From Cenococcum geophilum (Eukaryota): a stretch of 64,000 nucleotides of DNA. The position numbers and the translations under genes were made by a program. The stretch spans positions 15,252,001 through 15,316,000 of the forward strand of contig CP158635.1 in NCBI GenBank assembly GCA_050273025.1, written 5' to 3'. The notes beneath the pieces were generated by a model. The model ran no database searches. It was given only the letters and a program-made list of their open reading frames with translations, and was not told the origin of the DNA. Below are positions 1-62,416 of this stretch, in pieces (the first letter of the stretch is position 1; each line of letters opens with the position of its first letter).

Positions 1-1644
1 TATTATAACAAAATGCAAAACTTTTAATTAAATATTCTTTTATTTCTTATAGCATATTATTATCCCTCTGTACATATATATCGTCTACTGGTCTTATACC
101 TTTTACTATATAGTAACTCTACCCACTTCTATAGTCTCTGACGTAATAATCCTATTTTCCGCAATTTATGCAAGCTCCTTTTTTAAACTATTTCTCTTGT
201 TATGGAGTCCGCCTAAATATCTTCTGCTATTAAGATCCCTAATTCGGCCTTTACTCCTTAGACCTTTAATTACTTAATTCTTATCCTCTAGGTTTCTATG
301 GTTTGCTCCATCTCTTATAGGCTTCTTTAGTACTACTTAGGTCTATTAGCTCTGCGCCATACCATAGTTTCTAACTTGGCTTTTATCGTTGCGTACTCTG
401 CGCCTTATATAACTGTAGAACTCTATCCTAGCCTCTCTTAGCCTATTCCCTTTGGTAGATCTAATTGTTAATCTTAATTGCCTAATCTATTAGTTCCCTT
501 AGGGTGTCTATATCTTCTATTAGGATAATCACGTTCTAGACTTTAGCCTTAAGTCCCTGTTTATACTATGCCATAAGCGCCCTATTATTCCACTCTACTT
601 GTGTTGCTAGTGTCTAGAACTATATTATATACTTAATTGCTAAAGTTCGTTATATAAGGTTCTAGAGTTTTCTTTCCGCTATAGTTGTTTTTTCTAGGTC
701 TCTAAATATCTGCGTAAGTCGTTCTATGAATCCTTTCTAACTTAAGAACATAAATCGCACGTCTTAGTTAGTGGTCGTTATTCTATTTGCCTGTATCTCT
801 ATAAGGTAGGGTTTAAACTACTTAAGTACTTTCCCTAATAAGAATAGTCCTATATAGGCTATCCAATCTACAGATATAGGTAATTTTACTCCCTCCTATA
901 AGACCTTAAAGTGCATCTGCGTAAGGAATCCTTTAAGCTTTAACCTCTCTCCTGTAAATCTCTTAATTAATAGTAGCTTAATCTTTACTGCTCCTATCCC
1001 GTTAAGTCTTTCTTCTAATACTATATTATTAGCTGTTAACTAGTTAACTACTTCCTATAGCTATCTAACTATTATAGGTTGCTATAAGTTAGTATCTGCC
1101 ATACTAGTGTTACCTCCTATCCTTAAAGTAGTTGCTGCCGTTAATAGCGTTATAGTGGCTACTTTTAGTAGCATGTTATTCAACTTCTTATATTAATACC
1201 GTAACCGGGTAGTAATTATATAATAGAACCTAGTAGCAAGAACTACGATGGGTTCGTTAATGGGCTAGGTATATAGGAAATGCAAGTATAAAAGTTAATC
1301 AACATAATAATAACTAGTGGAGTAGTTGCCTAACAGATTAACTCTAATTATATTTTAAGAATTACTATAAGGAAGGAACTATCTAGGTAGGGACTAAGGG
1401 TCCTTAAATACATAACCGTACTCCTAAGAAAGTTGTTACTCTGTCTACTCTATCTGCTTTATTTGCTCTGCAATAGATCTTATAGATTATACAGATTATA
1501 CAGATTATATCACGTGACTCTGCTTACCATTCCTCGTCACATGGTTCCACGGGTTCCATCCTAGACCGTGCTTGTATTAACCAACTAGCTTCTTCCAACT
1601 CCTCTCCAAGTAGTTGTAACATTGTACTTAAAGCGTCCGTAACA
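1..1644 (-). mobile_element. Gypsy LTR retrotransposon, family A: 5' LTR and gag, running off the left edge, RIP-mutated
   Basis: The reverse complement matches the LTR and gag start of the element at 23764. LTR is 1219-1644 (starts TGTTACGGACGCTTTAAG on the minus strand). gag ATG is at 1174. Confidence 0.9.
1219..1644 (-). repeat. LTR of Gypsy family A
   Basis: Homologous to the LTRs at 23764-24187 and 31094-31500. Confidence 0.88.
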
Positions 1645-3369: not shown

Positions 3370-4036
3370 GTAGTAACTCTTTGATTAACGTCTGATACGG
3401 ATCCTACTGGCCCACGCAGACTACTCCGTCACAGGGGGAAAACTTGTGTATTTACAGGAAGAAAACCCTGCAGTTGGGTTGGGGGAGGAAAAACCCTATG
3501 AGCCACCTCAGTAGGATGAAAAACCCCGATTTGCCATATCCGTCCGTAGCAGCGGCCCTGCGGGCCTACGGCTACATCCTGTCCTCCTTAGATGTCTTGA
3601 ACTCCTTGGGAACCACTGCTTCCTTCTCTCCAGCTTATCCTAAGCTGAGGTTCACTACGTCCCAGCTAGGCCTTGCCAGTTGATCGATCGCTGTGCCTTA
3701 TCGTCGTTTCCCGTATTTTGACCGTCCCCTGTGTGCTATCTCTTGTTAACCATTGCCATATACGCCATGCCTTCCCCCCCCTAGGGCCTATCGAAGGCGT
3801 AAGGGGGATTCATCCATAAACTACCACTATACTAAGAGGCGAGCAGGACGTGTGTGTGTATGCCTGGGTATCTTTTGTGCCTAGGCCCCAGTTGCTAGGC
3901 CCTCGCCAAGGGTCACCACTCCTTGAGAGGAGACAGGAAAACCGTACGGTATTGTCCAGGCTGCCAGGTAGTATTTGGTAGTTGATAGCGAGTGACCGCA
4001 TGCTCCGCGGGCGATCGCCCTGGGGGTTAGGAGGGA
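3370..4036. mobile_element. GC-rich unclassified insertion between 13-bp direct repeats
   Basis: Abrupt GC-rich island in RIPped DNA. TAGGGTAGTATTA occurs at 3357-3369 and 4037-4049. Confidence 0.4.
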
Positions 4037-4059
4037 TAGGGTAGTATTATTAAGAGTGT

Positions 4060-4960
4060 TAAAGCTAACCTTATAGGGATTAAATTGGAATAGGGAAGCC
4101 TTAAGACTTAAAATACTAAACTCTAAGAGAAGATCCGTTCCCTCCGAACGTAGCTTAACACTTTTTTAGCATTGCCCCCATTAATATAATTATGGGCGTT
4201 AGTAGCGGCTAGCGGAGGCGTAAGAGGATTAGGAATAACTCTCTTGCGAGTAATAAGTACTAGGAGCCTAAATAAGAAGCCTAACCGCTAGCTAGTAGTT
4301 AATGTCAGATAAGTAAGAGAAGAAGTATTAGAGAAGGTAGTGACGACTTAAACAAGGAAGCTAAAGGGTAATAGCTCTTTAGCCCTACCTTAAGTATTAT
4401 AAAAGGGAATAGATATAATATTGTTTGTTATATATAAGGTATATACCAAAATTATAGGCTTAATTATATTGGCGCTTAGGTTATCTAAAACGTAGTCTAT
4501 TGATAATATTTGGTATATTAAAAATGCGCTTATATATTTATAAAAGTTAAATAGAATTCTAATAATATAGAACTTAAAATTAGCTAAATTTAGTATAAAT
4601 TTATATATTAGCTGTACTAATTTAGCTAAAACTTTGTCTACTAATTTTATTAAAGCTTTAATTATCTTCAAAAAGCGTAATAAGTTTAGGAGCTTAGGTA
4701 AAGATTTTCTTATTAGTTGGTGAGAGTCTTAAAGGTGCGTCTATAAAGCTTAAAGGCGGCGTAATATGCTAATATTTTCCTTAAGGAGGCTGCGTAGTAG
4801 ATATAACCGTATATTGTGCCACGGGAAGGTCCGCATTGTAAAGTTAAGCGGTAGTATTTGCGAGAACTGGTTAAGGTTCCGTAGGCTTTATTTAACTTAA
4901 ACAGCCAAATAGTACGCAATAGCGTTAGTAGGGACTGTGGCTATATACCGCTACCACGCT
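4060..4960 (-). pseudogene. Uncharacterised RIPped gene divergent from the NLR, paralogous to 10660-11750
   Basis: The reverse complement of about 4650-4880 aligns with about 10740-10960 (QHITPP.S..APS..S.TDEK.FTQAP-like peptide). Confidence 0.4.
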
Positions 4961-5029
4961 ATACTTAAGAGTGTTAGTTTTTACGCCAACTAGTTACCCG
5001 TTTACTCTATATTCTCTATTCCTTAATTT

Positions 5030-6192
5030 TAAAAAGTATACCCTTAATAAAGGTTTAGTTAGTATAGCTTAGCTACCCTCCCTACTAGCAAAGGCGAGCT
5101 TAAAGTATTTTACGCTTTAATCCCTTATTATAAACACCGCTAATTATACTGTCGTTAAACCTATTCTGTGCTAAGTTAAAATACGGGCGTTAGTAGAAGG
5201 TAGCCCTATAGCTAAGCATATAGTAAAACTACTTAGACTTACCTTAGGCAGCAGTTTTAGCAGTAAGCTTTACCTAAAATAGTTAAACGCTATACTTAGA
5301 CGGCTATATAGATAGTATGCCATTATAGCCTACTATAATATTTTATATAGTAAAGTATCTTATATAAATTAGTTTATTTCTTTAGTCGCCCTAGCTCTAA
5401 TTAAGTACCTCTACTATAATAAAAAGCACTAAACTATTTTTAATTTAGTAAGAGAAGGAAGATTAGGCCTTAGTATATATTTAATAAAATAACTAGTAGC
5501 GTCTTACCCTGTACGCATTTTTATATACGCTTATTAATAGTAAGGTAGTATATAGGTACTTAGTAAGCTATAGCTAAGGGCACTCCTATTTATAACTTCT
5601 TTTATACTTTCTAATACGCTCTTTATTTTTAAACTAAGCCTTATCTTAAAAGCGCTAGGCTTTATAATAAGCTATAAATATATACTATAATTTATAAAAC
5701 TATATATATAGCGGCAATTTCTATAGTTATAGCGCCCTATTTTTAGCTGGCAATCGTTTTAATATAGGTAGTGATAATATATACTTTATAAGTCTAGGTA
5801 TTATAAGTAATTAAGCCGGCCTTTATTATATTATATTAAGGCTAACTTTTAGTATATAAGATAGCTGTAAACGACAATACTAATAATTAATGCTTAAGCG
5901 CTTAGCGTTTAACTAACCTATAAGAGGATAAAGATTAAATTTTAAGTAGTAAAGATCCTTTACTTAAAGGCTTATATATATAAATCCTCTACAATTAAGC
6001 CTTTATATAGTAGTGGAATAATAATAAGTCCCGTATTTTATAGATATATAGTAATCTAGGTAAGGGCAAGACAATAATAATAATAGCTTTTATTAACGAG
6101 ATATTACGGCGGCTTTAGTTAAGCCCTAGGTTAGGGATTTTATTATACTTCTTTTGCTAGAATATAATCTAGGAACTAAATAATGTAGTTTT
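5030..6192. repeat. Inverted duplication, arm 1 (NLR upstream region and N-terminus); partner at about 9456-10615
   Basis: Near-colinear reverse-complement match over about 1.15 kb, differing mostly by transitions. Confidence 0.9.
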
Positions 6193-7960
6193 AATTATTT
6201 AAGGCCTTACCTACCTCCTAGCTACGCTAAATCTAATATAACCTAGTATCTATGGAAGAGGTATAATAAAACCAACAGCCACTCTTTTAAGGGGTTTAAT
6301 ATACTCTATAGCCTTTAGAGAACGCTTTTAAAAATAGTATAGGATTTAAGTTATCTAAGAGTCTACTTAATAGTTAATACTTTTAACGAGTGCAATTCCT
6401 AGTCGCTTAAGGCCTTTCTAAAACTACTTAGCTACTCTAAATTGTTAAGTAAAGTCAAGTAGGTAGTAACTAGCCGTAACGAGACAAAAATTAATAAATA
6501 TCTTTAATATAGCTACCTTAGCCATAATATAAGCCTAGAGTTAAACTTATCCTATATTTTAGAAGTTGCTTCTTTTATTAATTATAAGGTTAACGATTTA
6601 GCTACCTAAAAGAACTATAGAAGTGGGCTCTAGAGTTTTATTAAAGAGTATCTTACTAAGTATACAGATGGAACCTTTCTATAGGTAGCTTTAGTCTATA
6701 AAGAACTTAAGAAAGTACTAGTATAGAGAACTCTAGATATCTATATAAAGTTCCTAATAGGACTAGAGCCTCTCTACTAGCGAATATTAAAGTAAATTTA
6801 GTATAATAGAGATCTGGAAGAGGTAGAAGTCTACCTATAAATTCTTCGCACAATTACGCTCTTCTATTGTCCTCTATACCTTAATAAAATAGGAATTATT
6901 GCCGGCTTTTTAGAAGATCTTAGTAATAACTTATAAGCTTTGCAAGATCTAGTTAGCTCTTATAGTTCTTTCTTAACGCTTTATAAGCCAATCGTCTACT
7001 TTGTCTATTAGTTGGCAAAGGACTACTTTAGCGTTAGTAATAGCTTAAACCTCTTTCTATTAGGGCAGACTAAGGCGTATAGCCTACTAGCTAATTAATC
7101 GCTGTGGCTTATATCAAACTCTCTAAGAAAAGATATCTGCGGTTTATAGAGGCTAGGCACCCTTATATAAAAGGTAGATAATAATATAGTAGGCCGTTAT
7201 ATTCCCACACACGTTTAGTATATATATTACTACTAGGTACACCATCTAAAAGAGAGTAAAAGTCCCCTTAAAGACAATAAATAGGTTTATATATGCCTTT
7301 AAGAGCACTTCTATATTAGCTTAAAGCTCTTAGTTTAATAAGGAAGATCTCTAATAAGGCTATTATAGTAAGACTATTAGAAAAAATGCTTACCGTAAAT
7401 AATTAATTCTGCTAAGCTGCAGTGCTAATAGCTAATTTAGTAAAATAAAAGCATAATACAAATTCGCTTCTACTAGTGATCATTCGTAATATAAAACGCT
7501 TTATTCTCTGTTTTGGGTCAATCATTAAAAACGCTCCTCTGCAGACATATAGCGCTGCTCTTACATTTAGTCCACTAAAAAGTGAAATTAGGAAACAGTT
7601 CTGGAATCACAGACATCCGCTAATTAAACGTGTCCTGCACGTAGAAGAAACCTAGAATTCAGCGCGCGGCACGCTTAAGGGCATTCGGATTCGGTCTGGT
7701 CGGTCGCATTCTCGCCAGACGGCCAGCTGGTTAAGACAGATAGTAGAGCATTAGATATTCGTTCTCTTCTCTTTAGTACTGTTTCTTATTCTTCAAATTA
7801 TTTATATACCCTCTTTGTAGCAAACGACTGGGTAATTAGGGAGGAGAAAAATATCCTTTAGCTTCCTTTTAATTATTATAAGACTTATACAGCCGTGCGG
7901 AACAGTATTTTTATCTTAGGACACTTATCTAGAGGTGTTTTATTCTTCGAATTAAAGTGA
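5674..7960 (+). pseudogene. NACHT-WD40 NLR (HET-E/HNWD-like), RIP-inactivated
   Basis: Walker A region ILWIHGNPGKGKTMMM near 6040-6080. FFCQ, Walker B YLIVD.FDEC, KWVVTSR, ADGTFLWVALVCKEL and VYFVHQSAKDY motifs follow. One WD remnant HSDSVWSVAFSPDGQLV lies near 7682-7730, then a C-terminal ILWLP motif. Confidence 0.88.
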
Positions 7961-8278
7961 CCTTATTATCTTAACCTCTTCCCTACCTACCTCCTACTTA
8001 TTTAGATTTCTTATATACTTACTAATAGAATCTGCTAGAATAACTCTGCCTAAAAACGTGCCTAGTTTTGAAATTAATTCTACTTTAAAATCAATTTTGC
8101 TTTAAAATTAATTCTGCTTAGAAATTAACTCCGCTAAGAAATTAATACTGCTTTTAAGAGGATTAGTTAATTAGTAGCCTATATATCTATTAGCTTAACC
8201 TAGTTTTGAAATAATAATAGTACTAGTAGGTATAGATTTACTTCGCAAATCCTATACCTCTGTTATGCTTAGTAGGGC

Positions 8279-9455
8279 AGGGGGCTGCGCTACGGGGGCT
8301 GCTTTATAGTAAATTATAGAGCTGCGTAGAGCTTTATAGAGTTATATATAGGCGTTATATAGGCGTTTATTCGGGCGATCGTATAGACGTTATAGAGCCG
8401 CTCGTAGAGACGATTATACGGCGATTAATTGTATAGGCGTTTATATAACCGATTATAAAGCCTTTCTAGTATATTAGTGCTGTATATTAGTAGAGCTTTA
8501 GACAGTGTAGCTAATAGGCAGCGTTTAGCGAGTAATAACGCTATTTGCTAATTAACTATAGCTAATTATATATATACGCTGACTATAAAGCTAATAGCGC
8601 GCTTATCCTAATTAGGTAAATTAGATAGATCTACTAGAGCTATGGGGTTAAAATTCTAGATTTTTGGCAGCACCTCCGTATATATAAATATTAATATTAT
8701 CTAATTTTAGATCTACTCTATTTAACCTTAAATAGTATCTAAATATCTTTAGATTCGATTAGTACGCCGCAGAGGCTTTAAAGTAGGTATTTACACTAGT
8801 AGTGACGGCAGTAGTAAGGATTTAGGTTAGGTAGTTAAGCGGGCTCTCTTTTAAAGTTAGACTCTATTAAGGAATAAGCTTTAGTAAACTTACCTATTTT
8901 AGCTAATATTTCTACTGCTATCTTTAACTTATAACCAGTTAGGTTAGTGTTTAAATTTATTAGCTAAGGCGTAGCTAAGGCGCCGTTAAAGCTAATATAG
9001 TTAATTAAGCTGCTTATAGAAGGTCTTTAAGAAGCTACTACTTCTAATATTAATCTGCTTTAATTGTGTCGGCTATAAGCTTATTACGCTTATTAGTAGC
9101 GATCTTTTTAGTTTAACTAAAAGCTTATTTATAGGCGGAGCTTATTACTAGTATAGAAAATAGATCTAGAGCGATCTTGGTAAGGATTAGATAGAGTATT
9201 TAACCGGTTATAAGCTACTAATTAAGAGAATCTAGAACGACGTTATTTACCTTACTGCCGTTTTTATTATAGATCTTAGTAAGTTTAAGGCCTACGTTAT
9301 AGTAGCGATTAAGCTCCGTAGTAAGCTTAATTTACTTCTATAAGTGTAAGGAAATAAGGTCCTTATTAACTAGTAAAGACTATAGATATTTATCGCTTAA
9401 ATCGTCGTTAGTTAGGAATATATAGCCGTAGTTCTAGCTAGCTAGTAGAGGATTT
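8279..9455 (-). mobile_element. hAT transposon 3' fragment, RIPped and truncated
   Basis: About 9040-9260 on the minus strand de-RIPs to LDWW...YPILTKIALDLFSIPAMSSACEQAFS...RNKL.ADTIEA, the hAT dimerisation domain. The terminus near 8279 is tentative. Confidence 0.75.
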
Positions 9456-10615
9456 AAACTATATTATTTAGTTTCTAGATTATATTTTAGCAGATAAAAT
9501 ATAACAGGATCCCTAACCTAGGGCTTAACTAAAGCCGCCATAATATCTCGTTAATAAGAGCTATTATTATTATCGTCTTACTCTTACCTGGATTACTATA
9601 TATCTATAAAATATAGGACCTCTTATTATTCTACTACTATATAAAGGCTTAATTGTAGAGGATTTATATATATAAGCCTTTAAGCAAAGGATCTTTGCTA
9701 CTTAAAATTCGGTCTTTATCCTCTTATAGATTAGTTAAACGCTAGGTACTTAAGTATTAATTATTAGCACCGCTGTCTATAGCTATCTTATATACTAAAA
9801 GTTAGCCTTAATATAATATAATAAAAGCCGGCTTAATTACTTATAATACCTAGACTTATAAAGTATATATTACTACCACCTATATTAAAACGATTGCCAG
9901 CTAGAAGTGGGGCGCTATAACTATAAAAATCGCCGCTGTATATATAGTTTTATAGATTATAGTATATATTTATAGCTTATTATAAAGCCTAGCGCTACTA
10001 AAATAAGGCTTAGTTTAAAAATAAAGAGTATATTAAAAAGTATAAAAGAAGTTATAAGTAGGAGTGCCCTTAGCTATGGCTTACTAAGTACCTATATACT
10101 ACCTTACTATTAATAAGTATATATAGAAATGCGTAGAAGGTAAGACGCTACTAGTTATTTTATTAAATATATACTAAGGCCTAATCTTCCTTCTCTTACC
10201 AAATTAAAAATAGTTTAGTGCTTTTTACTATAATAGTGGTGCTTAATTAGAGCTAGGGCAACTAAAGAGATAAACTAATTTATATAAGATACTTTACTAT
10301 ATAAAACATTATAGTAGGCTATAATAGCACACTATCTATATAGCCGTCTAAGTATAGCGTTTAACTATTTTAGGTAAAGCTTACTGCTAAAACTGCTGCC
10401 TAAGGTAAGTCTAAGTAGTTTTACTATACGCTTAGCTATAGGGCTACCTTCTACTAACGCCCGTATTTTAACTTAGCACAGAATAGGTTTAACGGTAGTA
10501 TAATTAGCGGTGTTTATAATAAGGGGTTAAAGCGTAAAATACTTTAAGCTCGCCCCTACTAGTAGGGAAGGTAGCTAAATTATACTAACTAGACCCTTGT
10601 TAAGGGTCTACTTCC
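9456..10615 (-). pseudogene. Second, truncated copy of the NACHT NLR 5' region (inverted duplication, arm 2)
   Basis: Reverse complement of 5030-6192. It breaks just after the FFCQ-equivalent motif and joins hAT sequence. Confidence 0.85.
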
Positions 10616-10659
10616 TAGGAAACTATAGTTAGTATTATCTTAAGTATGGCGTTATAGCG

Positions 10660-11750
10660 GTAATGCGCTGCCTCCGTTGCTCGTTGTTTGGCTTAGCGTA
10701 GTTACTAAGTTAACTAAAAATATACCGAAACCCCTAAACCCTAACCAATCCTCGAGATAACTACTATTTAACTTTAGGATATAGCCTATCTTATACTATA
10801 ATATACGGCTTTATTTATATCACAGCCTCCTTTAAAAGAATTTTAGTATATTATACCGCCTTTAGGCTTTATAGGCGCGCTTTTAGCGCCTCTGTTAACT
10901 AATGAGAAAGCCTTTACCTAGGCTCCCTAAGTTATCGCGCTTCTTAGAGATATAATAATTAAAATCTATAGACACCCTTTTAGCTTATATAATAAAATTA
11001 AGTGTTAGCTTAGGCAAGATAAGTTACTATTTAGGTTTATTAAGGATAAAATATAGTATATAGCCTCTGGCGGGGAAGAGGTACTAGCTAATAATACTAG
11101 TTGGATAAATATAACTATAATAGCAGAAGGGATTAACTTATTGTTTATATACCTACTTAGCTATACTAAAGTAGAGCGCTTTTAAGCTTCTATATAAATA
11201 AAGGCTTTATAGCGATAGGTAGAAGAGCTAGATAAAGGGCGGTATCTAGAGCGTATATATTTATTATCTCGCTGCCAAATTAGCAGTTTATGCTATACGA
11301 GCTTGCTTAGAGGTATATTTTAGGCACTATCCTCTTAACAAAGGTATTTATAGCGAAAATATCCTCTTAGGACGCCCTATTAAGCCTATAGTAGAATAAC
11401 CCCTACTTTATTTTATTTATAGAATACTATTACTTTTGCTACGTTTTAGATATTAACTTATAGATAGTATTATAAAAGGATCTATATTTACTAGTTAGTA
11501 ATACCTATAAGGCTACTACTTAATATCTTAAAGCCTTACTATAAGCACTTTAAAATGGAATAGTTTAAATATCTAAGTGCATTTTCTTACTATATGCAGC
11601 TGTTTTTATATATCTTTACTGTTAATATATCTATACTAATATATATAAATCCAGCCTTATTTAAGTAGAGATAAGTATTAATAGTTTATATACCTACTAA
11701 AGTCTACTTTCCTTAGCTCTGTTCTATACTAATAGCTTTAAGAAAGATTA
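10660..11750 (+). pseudogene. Uncharacterised RIPped gene, paralogue of 4060-4960
   Basis: Similar to the minus-strand gene at about 4.6-4.9 kb. A de-RIP LIV.MPTQLH-like motif lies near 11135-11165. Confidence 0.35.
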
Positions 11751-13350
11751 CTCTATAAAAGGCTATAAAACTATAAATTTCTATAAAAGAAGGTCTAGTA
11801 TTCTGCCTTAAATTTATATAATTATTCCTTACTATCTATAGAAAGCAGCTAACTCGTCTCTAAAGGTATATTATGTATATTTAGGAAACACTCTTATATA
11901 GTTACGATTACTTTTACTCTAATAAATGCACGCGTAAGTATAATACGGCTAAATAAAATAGTATATAGTGTACGGAAAATAATTTAAATAATATCTAGAA
12001 TATAAGGACATTATAGGGTATATATAGCTATGATTTAGAGTATAGGACGCCAGAATTAATAGAATAAGCCTTTTAAAGTTAGAAGTGCCCGACGTAATAC
12101 TTTTTATTTATAGTTATAAATATAGCTAAGTTAAATAAAACCTTAGTCTCTTTCTAAATTCCTCTAGCCTTAAATAGAAAAATTTAAGAATATTATTTTT
12201 TAACCCCATTTCTTAAATTACTATATATCTATAATTAGCGCTTTATTATATTATTCTAGCTAATATCTCCTACCTCTAATAGACATTTTCCCTTCTTAGG
12301 CTTTAAACGGTTCTTTCTTAACTTAGTATTATTAGCTAAATATCTATTAGAGAAGCCTTTAAATAAAAGTACTTATAGCGGCTTTAAATTCTTACTAGAT
12401 ATCCCGGGAGGTACTAGCGTTTACCATTTATATATAAATAGGGTAATCTCTAGGTTTATATCCACGCTAGTCTTTAATATATCTAAAAGGAACCTCTAGC
12501 TTTAGTTAGTATTTATAAATTACTTTTAGTTAGTTATTAATACGCCCTAAGAGTTTTATATCTTTAAGAGTATATACTATAAGTATATCACTTTAGAGGC
12601 GCAATTATAGAAGTTGGAGATATATATCCTCGCCAGGCTTAAAGTAATTAAGTAGTATTATAATATTTATAAGACTATACATTGTAGTAAAATAGCGAGG
12701 CTTATTCCCTTTTTTATTAAGTATAGCAGTTAGACTAGAAATAAGGCCGTTAAGCGCTGTGTTAAGATTAGGGCTAATATAAATAATGGTAACTAGAGTA
12801 AGCGTAAAGATAAGACAAGAATGCCTATTAAGAAGATATTCTAGATTTATTTAGACTTAAGATACTATAAAAGTAATTAGGCGGAGCGGAGAGTTATTAA
12901 TAGAATTTCCTATTGCTTAAATAATTAGTATTACTGCTTAACTTAGGGCCGAGCGCTAGAGAGGAGGTAATAATGTTAAGAAGGTTTAGGGGATTAAGTA
13001 GACCTTAAAAATTAAGTATTTAATTTTAGGCGTTAAACAAAAGACCTTTTTTAGATTAGTTAGATGCTCCTTTAATTATTGCTTATTATAAGGAGTAAGG
13101 TATATATTTTATTATCCTAGCCCTATACGCAGTGTAGCGCAGTATAGGCACTTAGCTTAGTATTGCCTTAGGCGTATAAAGCCTTATACTTTACCGTGTC
13201 TCTAATCTTTTATTCTTTTACTACTATCTACACTATTTATAGTTCCTTTATAGTAATTATACTAGAAAATAAAGGTAGAGATAGGCAATTAAAATTAGTT
13301 CTTTTAGGATTAAGAGTTTAGGTTATACAACCTCTCTAACTCCTTTAATA

Positions 13351-15699
13351 ACCTAGACCTTTCACCACACATGCAACCTTACTAAAAGGTAGCGCTGCAC
13401 TTCCAAACTTACGCATACCCATCTTACTATCAAAAACAATCGATTTTCCAACTCTCAAGACCCAATTCCTACTGCCTACTAAGCTAGAGGTGGATTTGTT
13501 TACCCTTTTACCCCCTTTATCCGAAGAGAAAATTCTTCTAAGGGTGGTCCTAGCTTATAAGTGAGGCAGGGGTAGGAATACGAAAACTATCAAACATAGA
13601 CTTTTCCTAGATTTTTCTTCTATAGAAAGTAAAAGCCTAATAAAATTAGGGGTGTAGGTACTTTTCTATATCTCTTTTAGTCAGATTTTCTTTAAAGAAG
13701 AGAAGGATTGCGTTTAGGGCTTTTCTACTAGTAAAAGCCTAACAAGTCCTTTTTTTTAGTAGTTTTTTCTACTTCTAATAGAAAAAGAAAATAACTATAC
13801 GAGTCTTTTTTAGCTAGTTTTTCTGCTACCTTTAACCCAATCTCCCTAGAAATCTTCTAGTAGGATTAGTAAGGAGAAAGGGCGTAAAAGGATAGTAAAA
13901 ACTAGCAAGGCTTTTTGCCTAGTTTTTTACCTTTAGGACTAGGAGATAAGAGACCTAAGGAGGTTATTATCTACTAAAAAAACTAGGAGACCCCCCCTAT
14001 AAGATACAAAATGCCAAGGCCTAATGGGTCTAAAAAAATACCTCCTATAGAAATAAGTGATAAAGGGTCTACATCTACCTTTTCTCCCCCTTCTCCTTCT
14101 CCTAGCCTATTTAGGACAGGAGAAAAAAGAGGACATCCTTAGTCTTCTCCTAAAAAAGAAAACTAAAAACCTATAAAAAAGACAATAAAACTAATAACTA
14201 CTACGGATAGAATACCTAGTATACCTTTTCCTCCCCTCTCTCCAGAACAACACCTATAAAAGGCTTTAGAAAGCCTACTCCAGGCCTATATAGGGCTAAA
14301 AAAAAGAAGAAGAAAAAGAAAAAGAACAAGTTAAAAGGATAGGGAACTATATACGGAGTATCTTAGTAAGAGGAGATCCCTTTACAAAAGAAGAAATAGA
14401 AAAAGATGTCCTAAAAGAACTAGTTGAAGAAGTAAGAGTTCTCCGTAAGGAGGTAGCCCCTACTAAAGAAACCTACGCAGAGAGGCTAAAGAAGGGCCTC
14501 CTTACTTCGTCCTCTTTACCCTTATCACTACCGTCTCCTACCCCCTCTACTTCTACTAAAAGTAAGAAAAAGCAGTTATAAGAAATAAAGCTAGTCCTAA
14601 TTATAGACCAAAAGGACCAACTTCTAAATACCTTCTCTATAAGAAATAAAGTCAATTAACTATTTTCATCGAAACTGCAAGTAGAAAAACCCGTTTTAGC
14701 ATCTATAGCTAGAACTAAAGGAAAATAAAATATCCTCCTCATAACTATAGAAGAGTATAATATAGATTTCTTAGTTAAGTATAAGGAGATCTAGCATAAC
14801 TGCTTTACCTTTTAAAGAGAACAAAAACTAGAACTATGGGTTTAAATTATAGCCAATGGGGTTCCTACCCTACCTTTCTTAAGAGAAGGAGGCTCTAAGC
14901 TTCTAAAGGAAGAAATTAAGACCTTTAATCCTATAAGGATATAAGGACTACCTAAATAGATCTTATTTAGTAAAAAAAGACATAATCCACAGACTAGATT
15001 TAGCTCTATAGTTTTTACTATAGAGAACGAAGAAAAAAGACAAGAAATTCTTAAATAAAAAGAGATATCAATTGCAGGTACAGCTACTAAGGTAGTAAAA
15101 TACCTAGAAGTCTCTCCTACTACGCAGTATACTAGCTGCCAAAAATTTGGCTATATAGGAGATAGGTGCTCTACCAGGGCCTGCAGATTCTATGCGGCTG
15201 TATATTTATCTAAAGACCACATCTGTCCTACCTGTATAATAATAGGCAAATCTTATAAGCATACTACTCCTCTTTGCATTAATTGTAAAGAAAAACACTT
15301 TACTAATAGTAAAGACTGCGAGACTCTTAAAGCAGCTAAACTAGTACGTAGTACTAGTGTAGAAAGTTCTATGGAAGAATAAAACAAATAATATCTTAGA
15401 AGGAGGCAACTCCTATTAGGCTCTTAAAAGGTTAATAGAGAGCAAAAGGATAGGGATAGGTGTTAGGATTTCTTATAGTTTTTCCTACCGTTTTTTTATT
15501 CCCTAGTAGTTGCAGTAACTTAGTTTACTAAGGAACTATAAACTCCTAGTTTAGGGGTTTATAAACTACTAGGATATAGCTATTAGTATATATTAAGCTA
15601 TATAGAAAGGATTCATATATATAGAACTATAGCGCCATAGCCTAGAGGCTGCATGCGCAGTATTATACGTAGTGTAATACAACGGATTTAAAAAAAAAA
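13351..15699 (+). mobile_element. LINE (Tad-like) element carrying only ORF1, with poly(A) tail and 13-bp TSD
   Basis: TSD AACTCCTTTAATA at 13338-13350 and 15700-15712. Poly(A) at about 15690-15700. ORF1 has zinc knuckles. No room for endonuclease/RT. Confidence 0.85.
14011..15382 (+). pseudogene. LINE ORF1 gag-like nucleic-acid-binding protein
   Basis: ATG at 14011. C-terminal de-RIP C.SCQKFGH.GDRC, CRFCAA.HLSKDHIC and CINCKEKHF.NSKDC knuckles. RIP stops and frameshifts. Confidence 0.8.
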
Positions 15700-17254: not shown

Positions 17255-17535
17255 CTACCTATCTACCTATTGACTTACCTACCTGCCTATCTACCTACCT
17301 GCTTGCATCGCCTACCTATCTGCATTGCCTACCTATCTACATTACCTACCTGTCTGCATCGCCTACCTGTTTACATCTGCCTACCTGTCTATATCTGCCT
17401 ACCCGTCAGCATCTGCCTACCTGTCTGCATCTGCTTACCTATCTGCATCTGCTTACCTGTCTGTATCTGCCTACCTGTCTACATCTACCTACCCGTCAGC
17501 ATCTCCCTGTTTGTGCCTACCTGTCTGTGCTACCT
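17255..17535. repeat. Tandem array, about 18-bp unit CTACCTGTCTGCATCTGC
   Basis: Visible directly. Confidence 0.9.
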
Positions 17536-17569
17536 TAATTCGATCAATCGATCGAATCGTTTATAGTGT

Positions 17570-18085
17570 TCGCTGGCTAGTCGTTGTCGTCTGGCTCTGG
17601 CGACAGTCGTCTAGTTCTAGCGACGGTCGTCTGGCTCTAGCGACAGTCGTCTGGTTCTGGCGACGGTCGTCTGGTTCTGGTAACGGTCGTCTGGCTCTGG
17701 TAACGGTCGTCTGGTTCTGGCGACGGTCGTCTGGCTCTGGCGACGGTCGTCTGGTTTTGGCGACAGTCGTCTGACTCTGGAGACGGTCGTCTGGTTCTGG
17801 CGACGGTCGTCTGGCTCTAGCGACGGTCGTCTGGCTCTAGCGACGGTCGTCTGGCTCTGGCGACGGTCGTCTGGTTCTGGTAACGGTCGTCTGGTTCTGG
17901 CGACGGTCGTCTGGTTCTAGCGACAGTTGTCTGGCTCTGGCGATAGTCGTCTGGCTCTGACGACGGTCGTCTGGTTCTGGCGACGGTCGTCTGGCTCTGG
18001 CGACGGTCGTCTGGTTCTAGTAACGGTCGTCTGGTTCTGGCGACGGTGTTTAGTTCTAGCGATAGTCATCTAGTTCTAGCAACGG
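17570..18085. repeat. Tandem array, 20-bp unit CGACGGTCGTCTGG(C/T)TCTGG, about 25 copies
   Basis: Head-to-tail units with no spacers. Confidence 0.95.
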
Positions 18086-18214
18086 TCCTCTGCTGGCTGC
18101 CGTTCTAGTGCCTCCCTAGGTAGGGAGGATGTAAGGAAGGAAGGAAGGGTAAAAAATAAGGCGGCTACATAGGCAGAGACACGTGTAGACGCTATCGGGA
18201 ATATAGCGGGGACC

Positions 18215-18835
18215 CGATGCAGAGCTTCGTGTAGAGCCTCCGTACGCAGAGCTTCGCGCAGAGCCTTGTGCAGAGCCTCTGTACGTAGAGCTTCGTATAG
18301 AGCTTCGTATAGAGCTTCGTGTAGAGCTTCGTGTAGAGCCTCCGTATGCAGAGCTTCGCGCAGAGCCTCGTGCAGGGCTTCGTGTAGAGCCTCCGTACGC
18401 AGAGCTTCGCGCAGAGCCTCGTGCAGAGCTTCGTGCAGAGCTTCGTGCAGAGCCTCCGTACGCAGAGCTTCGCGCAGAGCCTCGTGCAGAGCTTCGTGCA
18501 GAGCTTCGTGCAGAGCCTCCGTACGCAGAGCCTCGCGCAGAGCCTCGTGCAGAGCCTCTGTACGTAGAGCTTCGTGCAGAGCTTCGTGCAGAGCCTCCGT
18601 ACCCAGAGCTTCGTGCAGAGCTTCGTGCAGAGCTTCGTGCAGAGCTTCGTGCAGAGCTTCGTGCAGAGCTTCGTGCAGAGCTTCGTGCAGAGCCTCCGTA
18701 CGCAGAGCTTCGCGCAGAGCCTCGTGCAGAGCCTCTGTACGTAGAGCTTCGTGTAGAGCTTCGTGTAGAGCTTCGTGTAGAGCTTCGTGTAGAGCTTCGT
18801 GTAGAGCTTCGTGTAGAGCCTTGTGCAGAGCCTCT
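18215..18835. repeat. Tandem array of 12-bp (GCAGAGCTTCGT) and 15-bp (GCAGAGCCTCCGTAC) units
   Basis: Visible directly, with higher-order alternation of the two units. Confidence 0.95.
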
Positions 18836-61279: not shown

Positions 61280-62416
61280 CTATAGCAGGATGAGATAGTT
61301 GCTAGGCGCAATGCCAGTCTCGCCGTTTGGTTTCTTAGCCTGCCACCACCTCCCGCTGACATCTGAAACCTCCAAAATATCATGTTTCTGGAAGCTAATC
61401 TCATTCACGTCGTCAGGGTTTGCTTCGTAGCTGTAAATTGCCTTTGCGCGGTACGGATATTCCACAGACGTGCCGGCCTCGCCTTCGTTTGGACCATCTG
61501 TGGGAGTGTGCACTTGTGACGTATTATTAAGAGCTGTTGCGCCAAAGCGTGGCTGTGAAGAGTTTCGCTGATCCACACCAACAGGCCCACCCGGGTAGCC
61601 TGAAACAGGGGAAGATGTTTCGAATCCGTTGAGTTGAGCGGAAGTGTACATTTGTGGCGCGGGATTTGCAGTGACGGAAGTGTCGGGTCTTGCACCATAG
61701 TTGTTTGACATCTGCCTTGAGTTGCGTGAGGAGTGTCGATCTTTGTGGAGCGCATATGAATCGACGAAGGTTCGGTGGCTAGCTTGCGGCTGGGAGCCGT
61801 AGTAGAATACCCAAACGATCTGGACGTAATATATTAGTATTTGCACACCGTGAATTGTATAGTTTGTGCTTACCGCAACCATGGATAACAAAATGAAACC
61901 TGCTGCTGCTGCTTCGAAAGCAGCTGTGGGAGAGTACACCAAGGAATTGACGGAAGAGGTAGTAAAGACTAAGCCAGCAGCAAGGAAACCAACAATCTGT
62001 ATGAGCATTAGCAAAAATCGACTTCTATATGCATCCAAAATTTTGGTAGTGGACTCACCGCGACATGATATGTATGTTCAGAGTCCGAGGCTACCGTGAC
62101 TGTGACACCCACTATGCAGAAGAACATGAAGACCAGAGCCCACCACGCGAAATTAGGGAAGCCTCCATGAATGGCAGAGATGATCGAGCTAACGAAGGCA
62201 ATAATCCAGGCGAGCTGTTAAAACAGGTCGAATATTAGTCTTGTCGTACATACGAGACCAAGACCGTCAGTCACTTACAATACCAATCGAGATTGTTGCT
62301 AACGCAAAAGGGTCTCCCACAATCCGACCAAAGGAGAATGTTGATCTATTCCCGTAACTATGTCCGTTTTCCATTTTGCGAAGCGATGGGGAGGGAATGG
62401 AGCCGTAGGATGGCAT
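61280..62416 (-). CDS. SHO1: High-osmolarity signalling membrane sensor Sho1 (4 TM plus SH3), 4 exons, 318 aa
   Basis: Exons 62416-62279, 62214-62059, 61996-61874 and 61819-61280 splice in frame. Motifs: [26 protein letters not shown]3 [17 protein letters not shown]...[21 protein letters not shown]. Confidence 0.97.

Follow-up and report, generated by a model that had tools for sequence, protein, structure and literature searches.

What did the first exon of a dead immune-receptor gene in Cenococcum geophilum encode, and does it belong to a known signalling system? The question is raised by a 64,000-nucleotide stretch of contig CP158635.1 (assembly GCA_050273025.1, positions 15,252,001 to 15,316,000), here called the window. 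Coordinates refer to this 64-kb window unless prefixed by a locus label; L001, L002 and so on are fetched loci, L001 being a metagenome contig. The window contains, twice and amid transposon debris, the first exon of a dead gene for a NOD-like receptor (NLR) of the NACHT-WD40 type. Copy 1 lies at 5674-5797 and copy 2 on the opposite strand about 4 kb away. Both copies have been inactivated by repeat-induced point mutation (RIP): they are without a start codon and carry stops and frameshifts. An initial annotation had read the feature as some 40 codons followed by an intron and the NACHT region, and had proposed that these codons are a relic amyloid-signalling motif of a receptor without an effector domain of its own. 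Amyloid templating from an NLR to an effector is well established in fungal immunity and cell death.

The intact form of the gene is found in homologs. A phmmer search against 1.84 billion representative proteins gave 3114 matches, including NLRs with short N-termini. OCK99178.1 of C. geophilum 1.58 (1011 residues, 'WD40 repeat-like protein') lines up codon for codon with exon 1 of copy 1 over its residues 1-41, and the residues that follow, AADGDADNQCLSAWRLTDPRE.., align with the exon 2 relic. The cluster of the intact counterpart, P0152, carries PF24883 and PF05729. An NLR gene found on L001 in a metagenome scan shares 97.97% purine/pyrimidine identity with window 5674-7733 over 2066 nt, and its nucleotides 1-528 share 97.3% with copy 2 (9973-9446). 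BLAST E-values on two-letter purine/pyrimidine sequence are meaningless for short matches; alignment length was used instead. From L001 to the window, the alignment contains 535 mismatches in 2183 nt, 429 of which are of the C>T or G>A type, with CpA (205), CpG (133), CpC (46), and CpT (45) as their contexts. Because of this mismatch pattern and the purine/pyrimidine identity, L001 can be taken as the near base-for-base pre-RIP state of the relic.

The alignments to L001 and OCK99178.1 confirm the order of about 40 codons, intron, and NACHT region in both copies. Exon 1 of copy 1 aligns base by base to L001 10001-10124, and its codons correspond one for one to residues 1-41 encoded by the intact L001 gene and to those of P0266/OCK99178.1. 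The start ATG has become ATA at 5674 and codon 8 has changed from CAA to TAA. The intron donor GT at 5798 was placed correctly by the initial annotation. The acceptor had been placed at about 5852 and has to be moved to 5864. The AG at 5850-5852 was rejected as an acceptor and is a product of RIP, because the intact L001 gene reads TGG there. At the aligned intron site L001 reads GTACCG..GCTGAC..AATAG. Many database entries of the clade are open reading frames (ORFs) of exon 2 only that start just inside the intron, in agreement with its position.

Exon 1 encodes a conserved motif. An alignment of 11 N-termini, from NLRs of Dothideomycetes and Leotiomycetes, keeps the pattern N.F.G...GG..hAGN.F..GGG.h.h (h, hydrophobic) and gives the consensus MxQxNxFxGxxxSxGGxxxAGNxFNTxGGxIxI. 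Two positions, the N and one of the Gs, do not vary, and F, A, G, and G reach at least 90%; the motif is conserved, as the proposal of a signalling function had supposed. The 31-residue core contains 20% G and 13% N. G, N, S, T, Q, and H together make up 60% of it, and charged residues 4%. In intact relatives, the N-terminus that precedes the NACHT module consists entirely of the motif. Intact NLRs begin 4-10 residues ahead of it in C. geophilum, Phaeosphaeria sp. (KAH7392014.1), Melanomma pulvis-pyrius (KAF2789052.1), Trypethelium eluteriae (two), Bathelium mastoideum (KAI9658392.1), and Pseudogymnoascus (OBT39539.1 and KFY93175.1), and unnamed metagenome proteins likewise. The peptide that the initial annotation had reconstructed by undoing RIP agrees with L001 at 16 of its 25 specified positions; at several Y and S codons it had put H and G, which is either wrong or beyond proof. 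The N-terminal domain varies within the same NACHT clade: RelA_SpoT (PF04607) occurs most often, then PNP_UDP (PF01048), HET (PF06985), NACHT_N (PF17100), or the short motif alone.

The significance of the motif was assessed with a hidden Markov model (HMM) profile, A2, built from the 11 intact NLR N-termini only. The profile was run on 9683 six-frame pieces of 26 fetched loci and the window, with a reversed-sequence control whose best score was 11.2 bits. Exon 1 scores 28.2 bits (E 5.6e-7) in copy 2 and 12.9 bits (E 0.033) in copy 1. A profile search of 5.8 billion proteins, with 8000 candidates scored, gave 12 matches, all of them NACHT proteins or NLRs and two of them new. A word-indexed search with P0010 residues 1-45 returned 58 candidates, none of them scored.

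The initial annotation had asked for a search of effector C-termini, and the motif is indeed found there. In three related loci, L001, L002, and L005, the gene adjacent to the motif-bearing NLR ends in the same motif according to the NLR-only profile, with one significant profile domain per effector ORF. In L001 and L002 this gene is transcribed divergently from the NLR and encodes a protein of the PNP_UDP phosphorylase family. The PNP_UDP_1 family matches the N-terminal half of the L002 ORF with 35.4 bits (cut-off 25.1) and the C-terminal half with 20.6 bits; the corresponding halves of the L001 ORF score 20.6 and 24.3 bits (cut-off 25.1). The identity of both ORFs is confirmed by tblastn, for which the PNP_UDP N-domains from P0249 and P0252 served as queries. 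For the upstream gene in L005, Pfam gives nothing credible (a single TrkA_N match at chance level, E 0.048), and the PDB has no match. In the ESM Atlas it gives only leads, to DUF676/alpha-beta-hydrolase clusters (0.87-0.91), and its family is uncertain.

On the effector side, the motif has a last exon of about 42 codons to itself, which follows a 49-60-nt phase-1 intron. The NLR counterpart mirrors this arrangement, being a 41-codon first exon that ends in phase 1. Judged from these gene structures, self-contained motif mini-exons on both partners would allow the tag to be moved by exon shuffling. The two receptors of Trypethelium eluteriae, KAL9078303.1 (P0177) and KAL9078305.1 (P0178), have near-identical motif N-termini and lie on one 51-kb contig with locus tags _002766 and _002768; the only gene between them, Q9157_002767, is an obvious candidate partner.

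The window itself contains no recognizable relic of such a partner. A tblastn search of the 64 kb gave no match at E<1, purine/pyrimidine alignment scored 24 against 21-29 for shuffled sequences, and two-letter BLAST matches reached no further than 80-87 nt, compared with 2066 nt in the positive control. Pfam found no family in the six frames of 3601-5706, and the sequence from 10614 onward was covered by the tblastn and purine/pyrimidine searches.

A terminus shared between receptor and effector is what defines amyloid signalling motifs, and the pairs in L001, L002, and L005 support this reading. By analogy with such systems, the NLR motif is probably an amyloid-type signalling tag that would activate an effector ending in the same motif. 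In the living system, modelled on NWD2/HET-S and the PUASM pairs, binding of a ligand at the WD40 repeats would cause the NLR to oligomerize. Oligomerization would gather the N-terminal motifs into a beta-arch or amyloid-like nucleus. The nucleus would then template the matching C-terminal motif of the effector and switch on its PNP_UDP enzyme domain, with cell death or defence as the presumable output. The relic stems from a probably uncatalogued variant of a known system. The proposal of a relic amyloid-signalling receptor is supported with respect to the short motif N-terminus and to the shared-terminus partner in related loci. It needs correction in its details, since the partner in L001 and L002 is a PNP_UDP_1 protein rather than the HeLo effector that had been envisaged, and the window has no partner gene.

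The overall architecture resembles the NWD2/HET-S system of Podospora anserina, in which a NACHT-WD40 NLR carries a motif of about 20-30 residues as its sole N-terminal element and the adjacent effector gene ends in a homologous motif. The motif was compared by inspection with the published patterns or descriptions of HRAM, PP, sigma, and PUASM. The signature of the HET-s-related amyloid motifs (HRAM1-5) comprises 21 residues, with N/Q/H at position 3, hydrophobic residues at 5, 8, 10, 16, and 18, R/K at 15, and G at 19 (Daskalov 2015). The present motif reads N, x, F, and then G-N sixteen residues after that N. The fit is partial: on both the receptor and the effector side, position 3 is N, position 5 is F or another aromatic or hydrophobic residue, positions 16 and 18 are hydrophobic, and positions 19-20 are G-N; Y10 and K15 are found on the effector side only. 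NLR-side motifs tend to have fewer D/E/K and more S/H (Daskalov 2015), and the polar, nearly uncharged composition of the present motif fits this trend. There are also differences. Some members are one residue shorter between the N and the G, and the effector here is a PNP_UDP_1 enzyme, whereas HRAM effectors are HeLo, HeLo-like, or SesA proteins.

Other parallels are motifs already linked to PNP_UDP effectors. PUASM (NLR32; Wojciechowski 2022, PMC9815663) is a PNP_UDP-associated motif of Pezizomycotina with the pattern FxGxGxQxxGxGxF. As in the present pairs, a PNP_UDP effector with a single C-terminal motif is combined with a NACHT or NACHT-WD40 NLR that has the motif near its N-terminus. 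The pattern itself is absent by inspection from the 11 NLR motifs and the three effector tails; the present motif has no central Q, is spaced differently, and has an AGN.F..GGG core instead. The second PNP_UDP-linked motif of Wojciechowski 2022, PF01048_015, is assumed to be the 'PUASM 2' of a 2025 paper. It also resembles the present motif in its position, near residues ~9-28 of the NLR. However, Fusarium NLR N-termini that carry it read ..PVYGSNVVTGISATGN.. and look unlike the present motif by eye. None of its 15 listed pairs has an OCK (Cenococcum) accession; two Pseudogymnoascus accessions were not looked up there. The PP motif is a pseudo-palindrome centred on Q with a GxQxG segment, and this core occurs by inspection in none of the 11 NLR motifs or three effector tails. 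The sigma motif is a three-fold repeat of about 40 residues; the present motif has about 31 residues, in which an internal three-fold repeat was not seen. Pfam includes models for sigma (Ses_B and NACHT_sigma).

Several observations weigh against an amyloid tag. On the NLR side, positions 8 and 10 of the HRAM register are not hydrophobic, and the effectors have one motif copy where HRAM effectors usually have two pseudo-repeats. Pfam prion-domain families, for which PF11558 is the relevant HET-s model (Daskalov 2015), match none of eight intact NLR N-termini at E up to 10. The profile found no HET-s chain in the PDB, its one match being unrelated and at chance level (E 0.86). In Table S2 of Wojciechowski 2022, based on 16 NLR-side motif HMMs, all three family members among the matches listed (OCK99178.1, OBT39539.1, and KFY93175.1) are called 'noasm'. 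No effector with the motif is among the 12 matches of the 5.8-billion-protein search, although this is weak evidence given that only 8000 candidates were scored. The profile detects no partner motif in the 2.9 kb upstream of the motif exon in L007. The effector genes are also imperfect: that of L001 has 2-nt and 4-nt indels relative to L002 (L001 9129 and 8593), and that of L002 has about 560 nt extra within the coding region (~8661-9260) and a 1-nt shift near the start (9689). These genes may be decaying, misassembled, or interrupted by an extra intron. A complex prediction with two NLR N-termini and the L002 effector tail returned 'no answer' (score 0.02) and is neutral.

The alternative that survives best is that the shared motif is a non-amyloid docking tag between receptor and effector, such as a recruitment peptide or a short strand for beta-strand addition, without a self-propagating fold. 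The pairing demonstrates a common terminal motif and not its mode of action, and it also counts in favour of such a tag that no prion-domain model or solved amyloid matches the motif and that the published grammar/HMM scan did not flag it. It is nevertheless unlikely. In the available portions of the literature, every experimentally tested fungal motif shared between NLR and effector termini behaves as an amyloid or prion, and both the composition and the N..GN register of the present motif resemble those of the tested ones.

The amyloid tag must also be set against the history of the gene pairs. The clade includes paralogs in which PNP_UDP lies on the same strand directly before NACHT (L003 and L004), and the profile does not find the motif there. 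The L003 paralog is 69% identical and has a PNP_UDP_1 score of 37.6 bits; P0249 and P0252 are further fused PNP_UDP-NACHT proteins of the clade. Because L003 and L004 are fused and lack the motif, the clade has both fused forms and split, motif-linked forms, which is consistent with the motif taking the place of a covalent link. The same fused proteins, together with the phase-1 introns that bound both motif exons, could alternatively point to fission of a fused PNP_UDP-linker-NACHT ancestor or to exon duplication, with both halves keeping a linker exon that is now functionless. This account is improbable: the fused L003 has no motif between PNP_UDP and NACHT, the motif, unlike the linker next to it, is kept in both fungal classes, and it is also found on a second, different upstream gene in L005.

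Chance similarity between low-complexity G/N-rich sequences is a still poorer explanation. The motif is short and rich in glycine, and the effector-side scores of 15.9-17.9 bits are modest. However, all three exceed the best of the 9683 reversed controls, align over 26-29 profile positions in register, and lie at the very end of a gene next to a motif-bearing NLR. Poorest of all is the idea that the short N-terminus is an annotation artefact hiding upstream exons for a folded effector domain, for although many database models of the clade are truncated exon-2-only ORFs, the ATG-like start of the divergent PNP_UDP gene in L001 (9719) lies only 281 nt from the NLR ATG (10001) and leaves no room for such an exon, the stop of the upstream gene in L005 is 296 nt ahead of the NLR ATG, and seven named proteins of six genera all have their start at this position. 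The initial annotation was therefore right that no folded effector domain preceded the motif.

Its suggestion that the motif might be uncatalogued agrees with the absence of Pfam matches in all eight N-termini and with the three 'noasm' calls. OCK99178.1, OBT39539.1, and KFY93175.1 belong to the N-terminal cluster POR31696, many other members of which were called PP, HRAM, sigma, or NLR34. In the pair tables of Wojciechowski 2022, Cenococcum appears among the matches listed for PP pairs only, and the motif string does not occur in nine of the 11 supplementary files (all but files 9 and 10). A full-text literature search found no paper describing this motif in the portions of text it covered. 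The available part of the 2025 paper counts only about five families of catalogued amyloid signalling motifs in fungi. According to the part of Wojciechowski 2022 that was available, motifs are found in only 17% of short NLR N-termini, most of which remain unexplained. It appears that a receptor/effector motif family has been missed by the current catalogue.

A wider proposal can be offered tentatively. The pairs may represent an amyloid-signalling family of fungi additional to HRAM, PP, sigma, and PUASM 1-2, in which a single-repeat, HET-s-like beta-arch tag is carried on mini-exons with phase-1 introns. NACHT-WD40 receptors of Dothideomycetes and Leotiomycetes would use it to activate PNP_UDP enzymes and, perhaps, a hydrolase of the DUF676 type. 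Exon shuffling could then rebuild the wiring, and the fused PNP_UDP-NACHT proteins would be the unsplit state. In any case, the relic has brought to light a conserved motif without annotation in the largest survey, and three receptor/effector gene pairs that share it. Should the motif be confirmed, the poorly understood PNP_UDP effectors gain a new motif family, such pairs extend to an ectomycorrhizal Dothideomycete lineage, and the interconversion of fused and split receptor-effector forms can be viewed at the level of exons.

The remains of the gene in the window vary in extent (Table 1). After the GT..AG interval of copy 1, another frame reads the pre-NACHT block CLSA*RLTNL*EDKD..LWI..GKGKT (asterisks, stops), which is typical of fungal NACHT NLRs. 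Of 514 aligned exon 2 codons in this copy, 37 are stops. Frameshifting indels are located at 6239, 7308, and 7682, the first two being 1-nt deletions. Pfam finds no family in the RIPped exon 1. In the stop-masked translation of the relic, NPHP3_N is matched at residues 53-126 (6008-6229) with an E of 6e-4, below the cut-off; weak scores of this kind for NPHP3_N and WD40 are expected because of RIP. Similarity to L001 ends within the first WD40 repeat, at 7733 by purine/pyrimidine BLAST and at 7740-7756 by alignment. Because L001 continues past 7733-7756, copy 1 is truncated at its 3′ end. It retains just the start of one WD40 repeat, compared with 12 WD40 stretches in each of the full-length relatives P0015 and P0037. 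Copy 2 is a 528-nt 5′ fragment (9973-9446, minus strand) that ends about 43 codons past the P-loop and contains no WD40 repeat. The window copies are biologically inert. They are a pseudogene whose origin is ordinary: RIP has destroyed a duplicated NLR.

Table 1. Coordinates of the NLR relics and their surroundings in the window, and of partner genes in related loci
Feature	Position	Strand	Description
Native upstream flank of NLR relic	5554-5673	+	Only remaining native 5′ flank; purine/pyrimidine identity to L001 0.78-0.82 in 40-nt blocks
Exon 1 relic, copy 1	5674-5797	+	41 codons + 1 nt (phase 1), encodes motif; one stop
Intron relic, copy 1	5798-5864	+	67 nt, GTATTA..GCTAAC..GATAG; followed by CT of exon 2
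Exon 2 relic (pre-NACHT block and NACHT), copy 1	5865-7404	+	By alignment to L001 exon-2 ORF 10192-11736
Walker A / P-loop codons GKGKT	6059-6073	+	Read from sequence; aligns to GDPGKGKT of intact homologs
Start of first WD40 repeat	7676-7732	+	Pfam WD40 E 1.6e-3, residues 609-627, below cut-off
Exon 1 relic, copy 2	9850-9973	-	Motif less mutated than in copy 1
Intron and first ~337 nt of exon 2, copy 2	9446-9849	-	Intron 9783-9849
Arm 1 of inverted repeat	5034-6195	+	1162 nt, 93% identity between arms; repeat finding and self-BLAST
Content of arm 1	5034-6195	+	Unrelated RIPped DNA 5034-5553, ~120 nt native 5′ flank, exon 1, intron, first 331 nt of exon 2
Arm 2 of inverted repeat	9452-10613		Partner of arm 1, 1162 nt, 93%
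hAT transposase C-terminal dimerization domain, RIPped	9056-9193	-	Dimer_Tnp_hAT E 7.3e-5, 22.9 bits (cut-off 21.4), residues 202-247 of 8701-9796 (-)
L002 effector ORF	L002 8784-7996	-	263 aa, motif in last 29 residues, 17.9 bits
L001 effector ORF	L001 9276-8590	-	Motif in last 26 residues, 15.9 bits
L005 effector ORF end	L005 1857-2000	+	16.8 bits; just upstream of motif-bearing NLR, same strand
Effector phase-1 intron, L002	L002 8180-8121	-	
Effector phase-1 intron, L001	L001 8762-8703	-	
Effector phase-1 intron, L005	L005 1830-1878	+	
Fused PNP_UDP-NACHT paralog, L003	L003 8840-9691		NACHT exon 10001 onward
Fused PNP_UDP-NACHT paralog, L004	L004 969-1820		

The two NLR copies lie in opposite arms of an inverted repeat and are surrounded by AT-rich fungal DNA. 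Transitions account for 80 of the 87 differences between the arms. The RIP indices of 5034-7500 and 7760-10613 are extreme, with a TpA/ApT of 1.79-1.86 and a (CpA+TpG)/(ApC+GpT) of 0.27-0.40; for the inverted repeat the values are 1.79-1.82 and 0.27-0.29. At the right end of the window the same indices are normal (1.07 and 1.12, respectively). Upstream of 5554, the purine/pyrimidine identity to L001 drops to 0.60-0.72 in 40-nt blocks, for which a chance level of about 0.70 is a rough guess. The hAT relic adjoins the broken end of copy 2. A continuation of copy 2 as NACHT past 9452 was considered and ruled out, Pfam identifying the stretch there as the hAT relic.

The extent of RIP does not coincide with the repeat arms. 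Copy 1 is strongly RIPped at 6196-7500, well outside the 1162-nt arm, which implies either another genomic copy outside this stretch or leakage of RIP over a long range. At 7500-7760 the RIP signature stops abruptly (TpA/ApT 1.00) while the NLR similarity goes on to about 7750; this drop may mark the edge of a once-duplicated segment. A comparable case is nwd6/nwdp-2 of Podospora, described as RIP-pseudogenized NLR duplicates in the available part of a 2026 article (GBE 2026). There too, as far as that part goes, a duplicated NWD-type NLR is RIP-hit, AT-rich, and surrounded by transposable elements. It differs in being a Sordariomycete HIC NLR, whereas the present duplicate is a partial copy in inverted orientation, in a Cenococcum-like Dothideomycete, and its interest lies in the N-terminal motif.

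Other parts of the window show further debris and some better preserved sequence. CCHC zinc-knuckle-like strings (C.NCGK..Y..RDY and CINCKEKH) are visible by eye in the translation at 1-300 (minus strand) and ~13000-14500 (plus strand), which suggests RIPped relics of retroelement gag genes. A GC-richer island at 17343-18800 consists of tandem arrays with 18-, 20-, and 12/39-nt units (families D1-D3), and the Pfam matches of ORFs across it are spurious, arising from low complexity only. The largest clean ORF of the non-RIPped right end, at 61280-62077 on the minus strand, encodes an SH3 domain (SH3_1, E 5.6e-9) and is presumably one exon of an ordinary gene.

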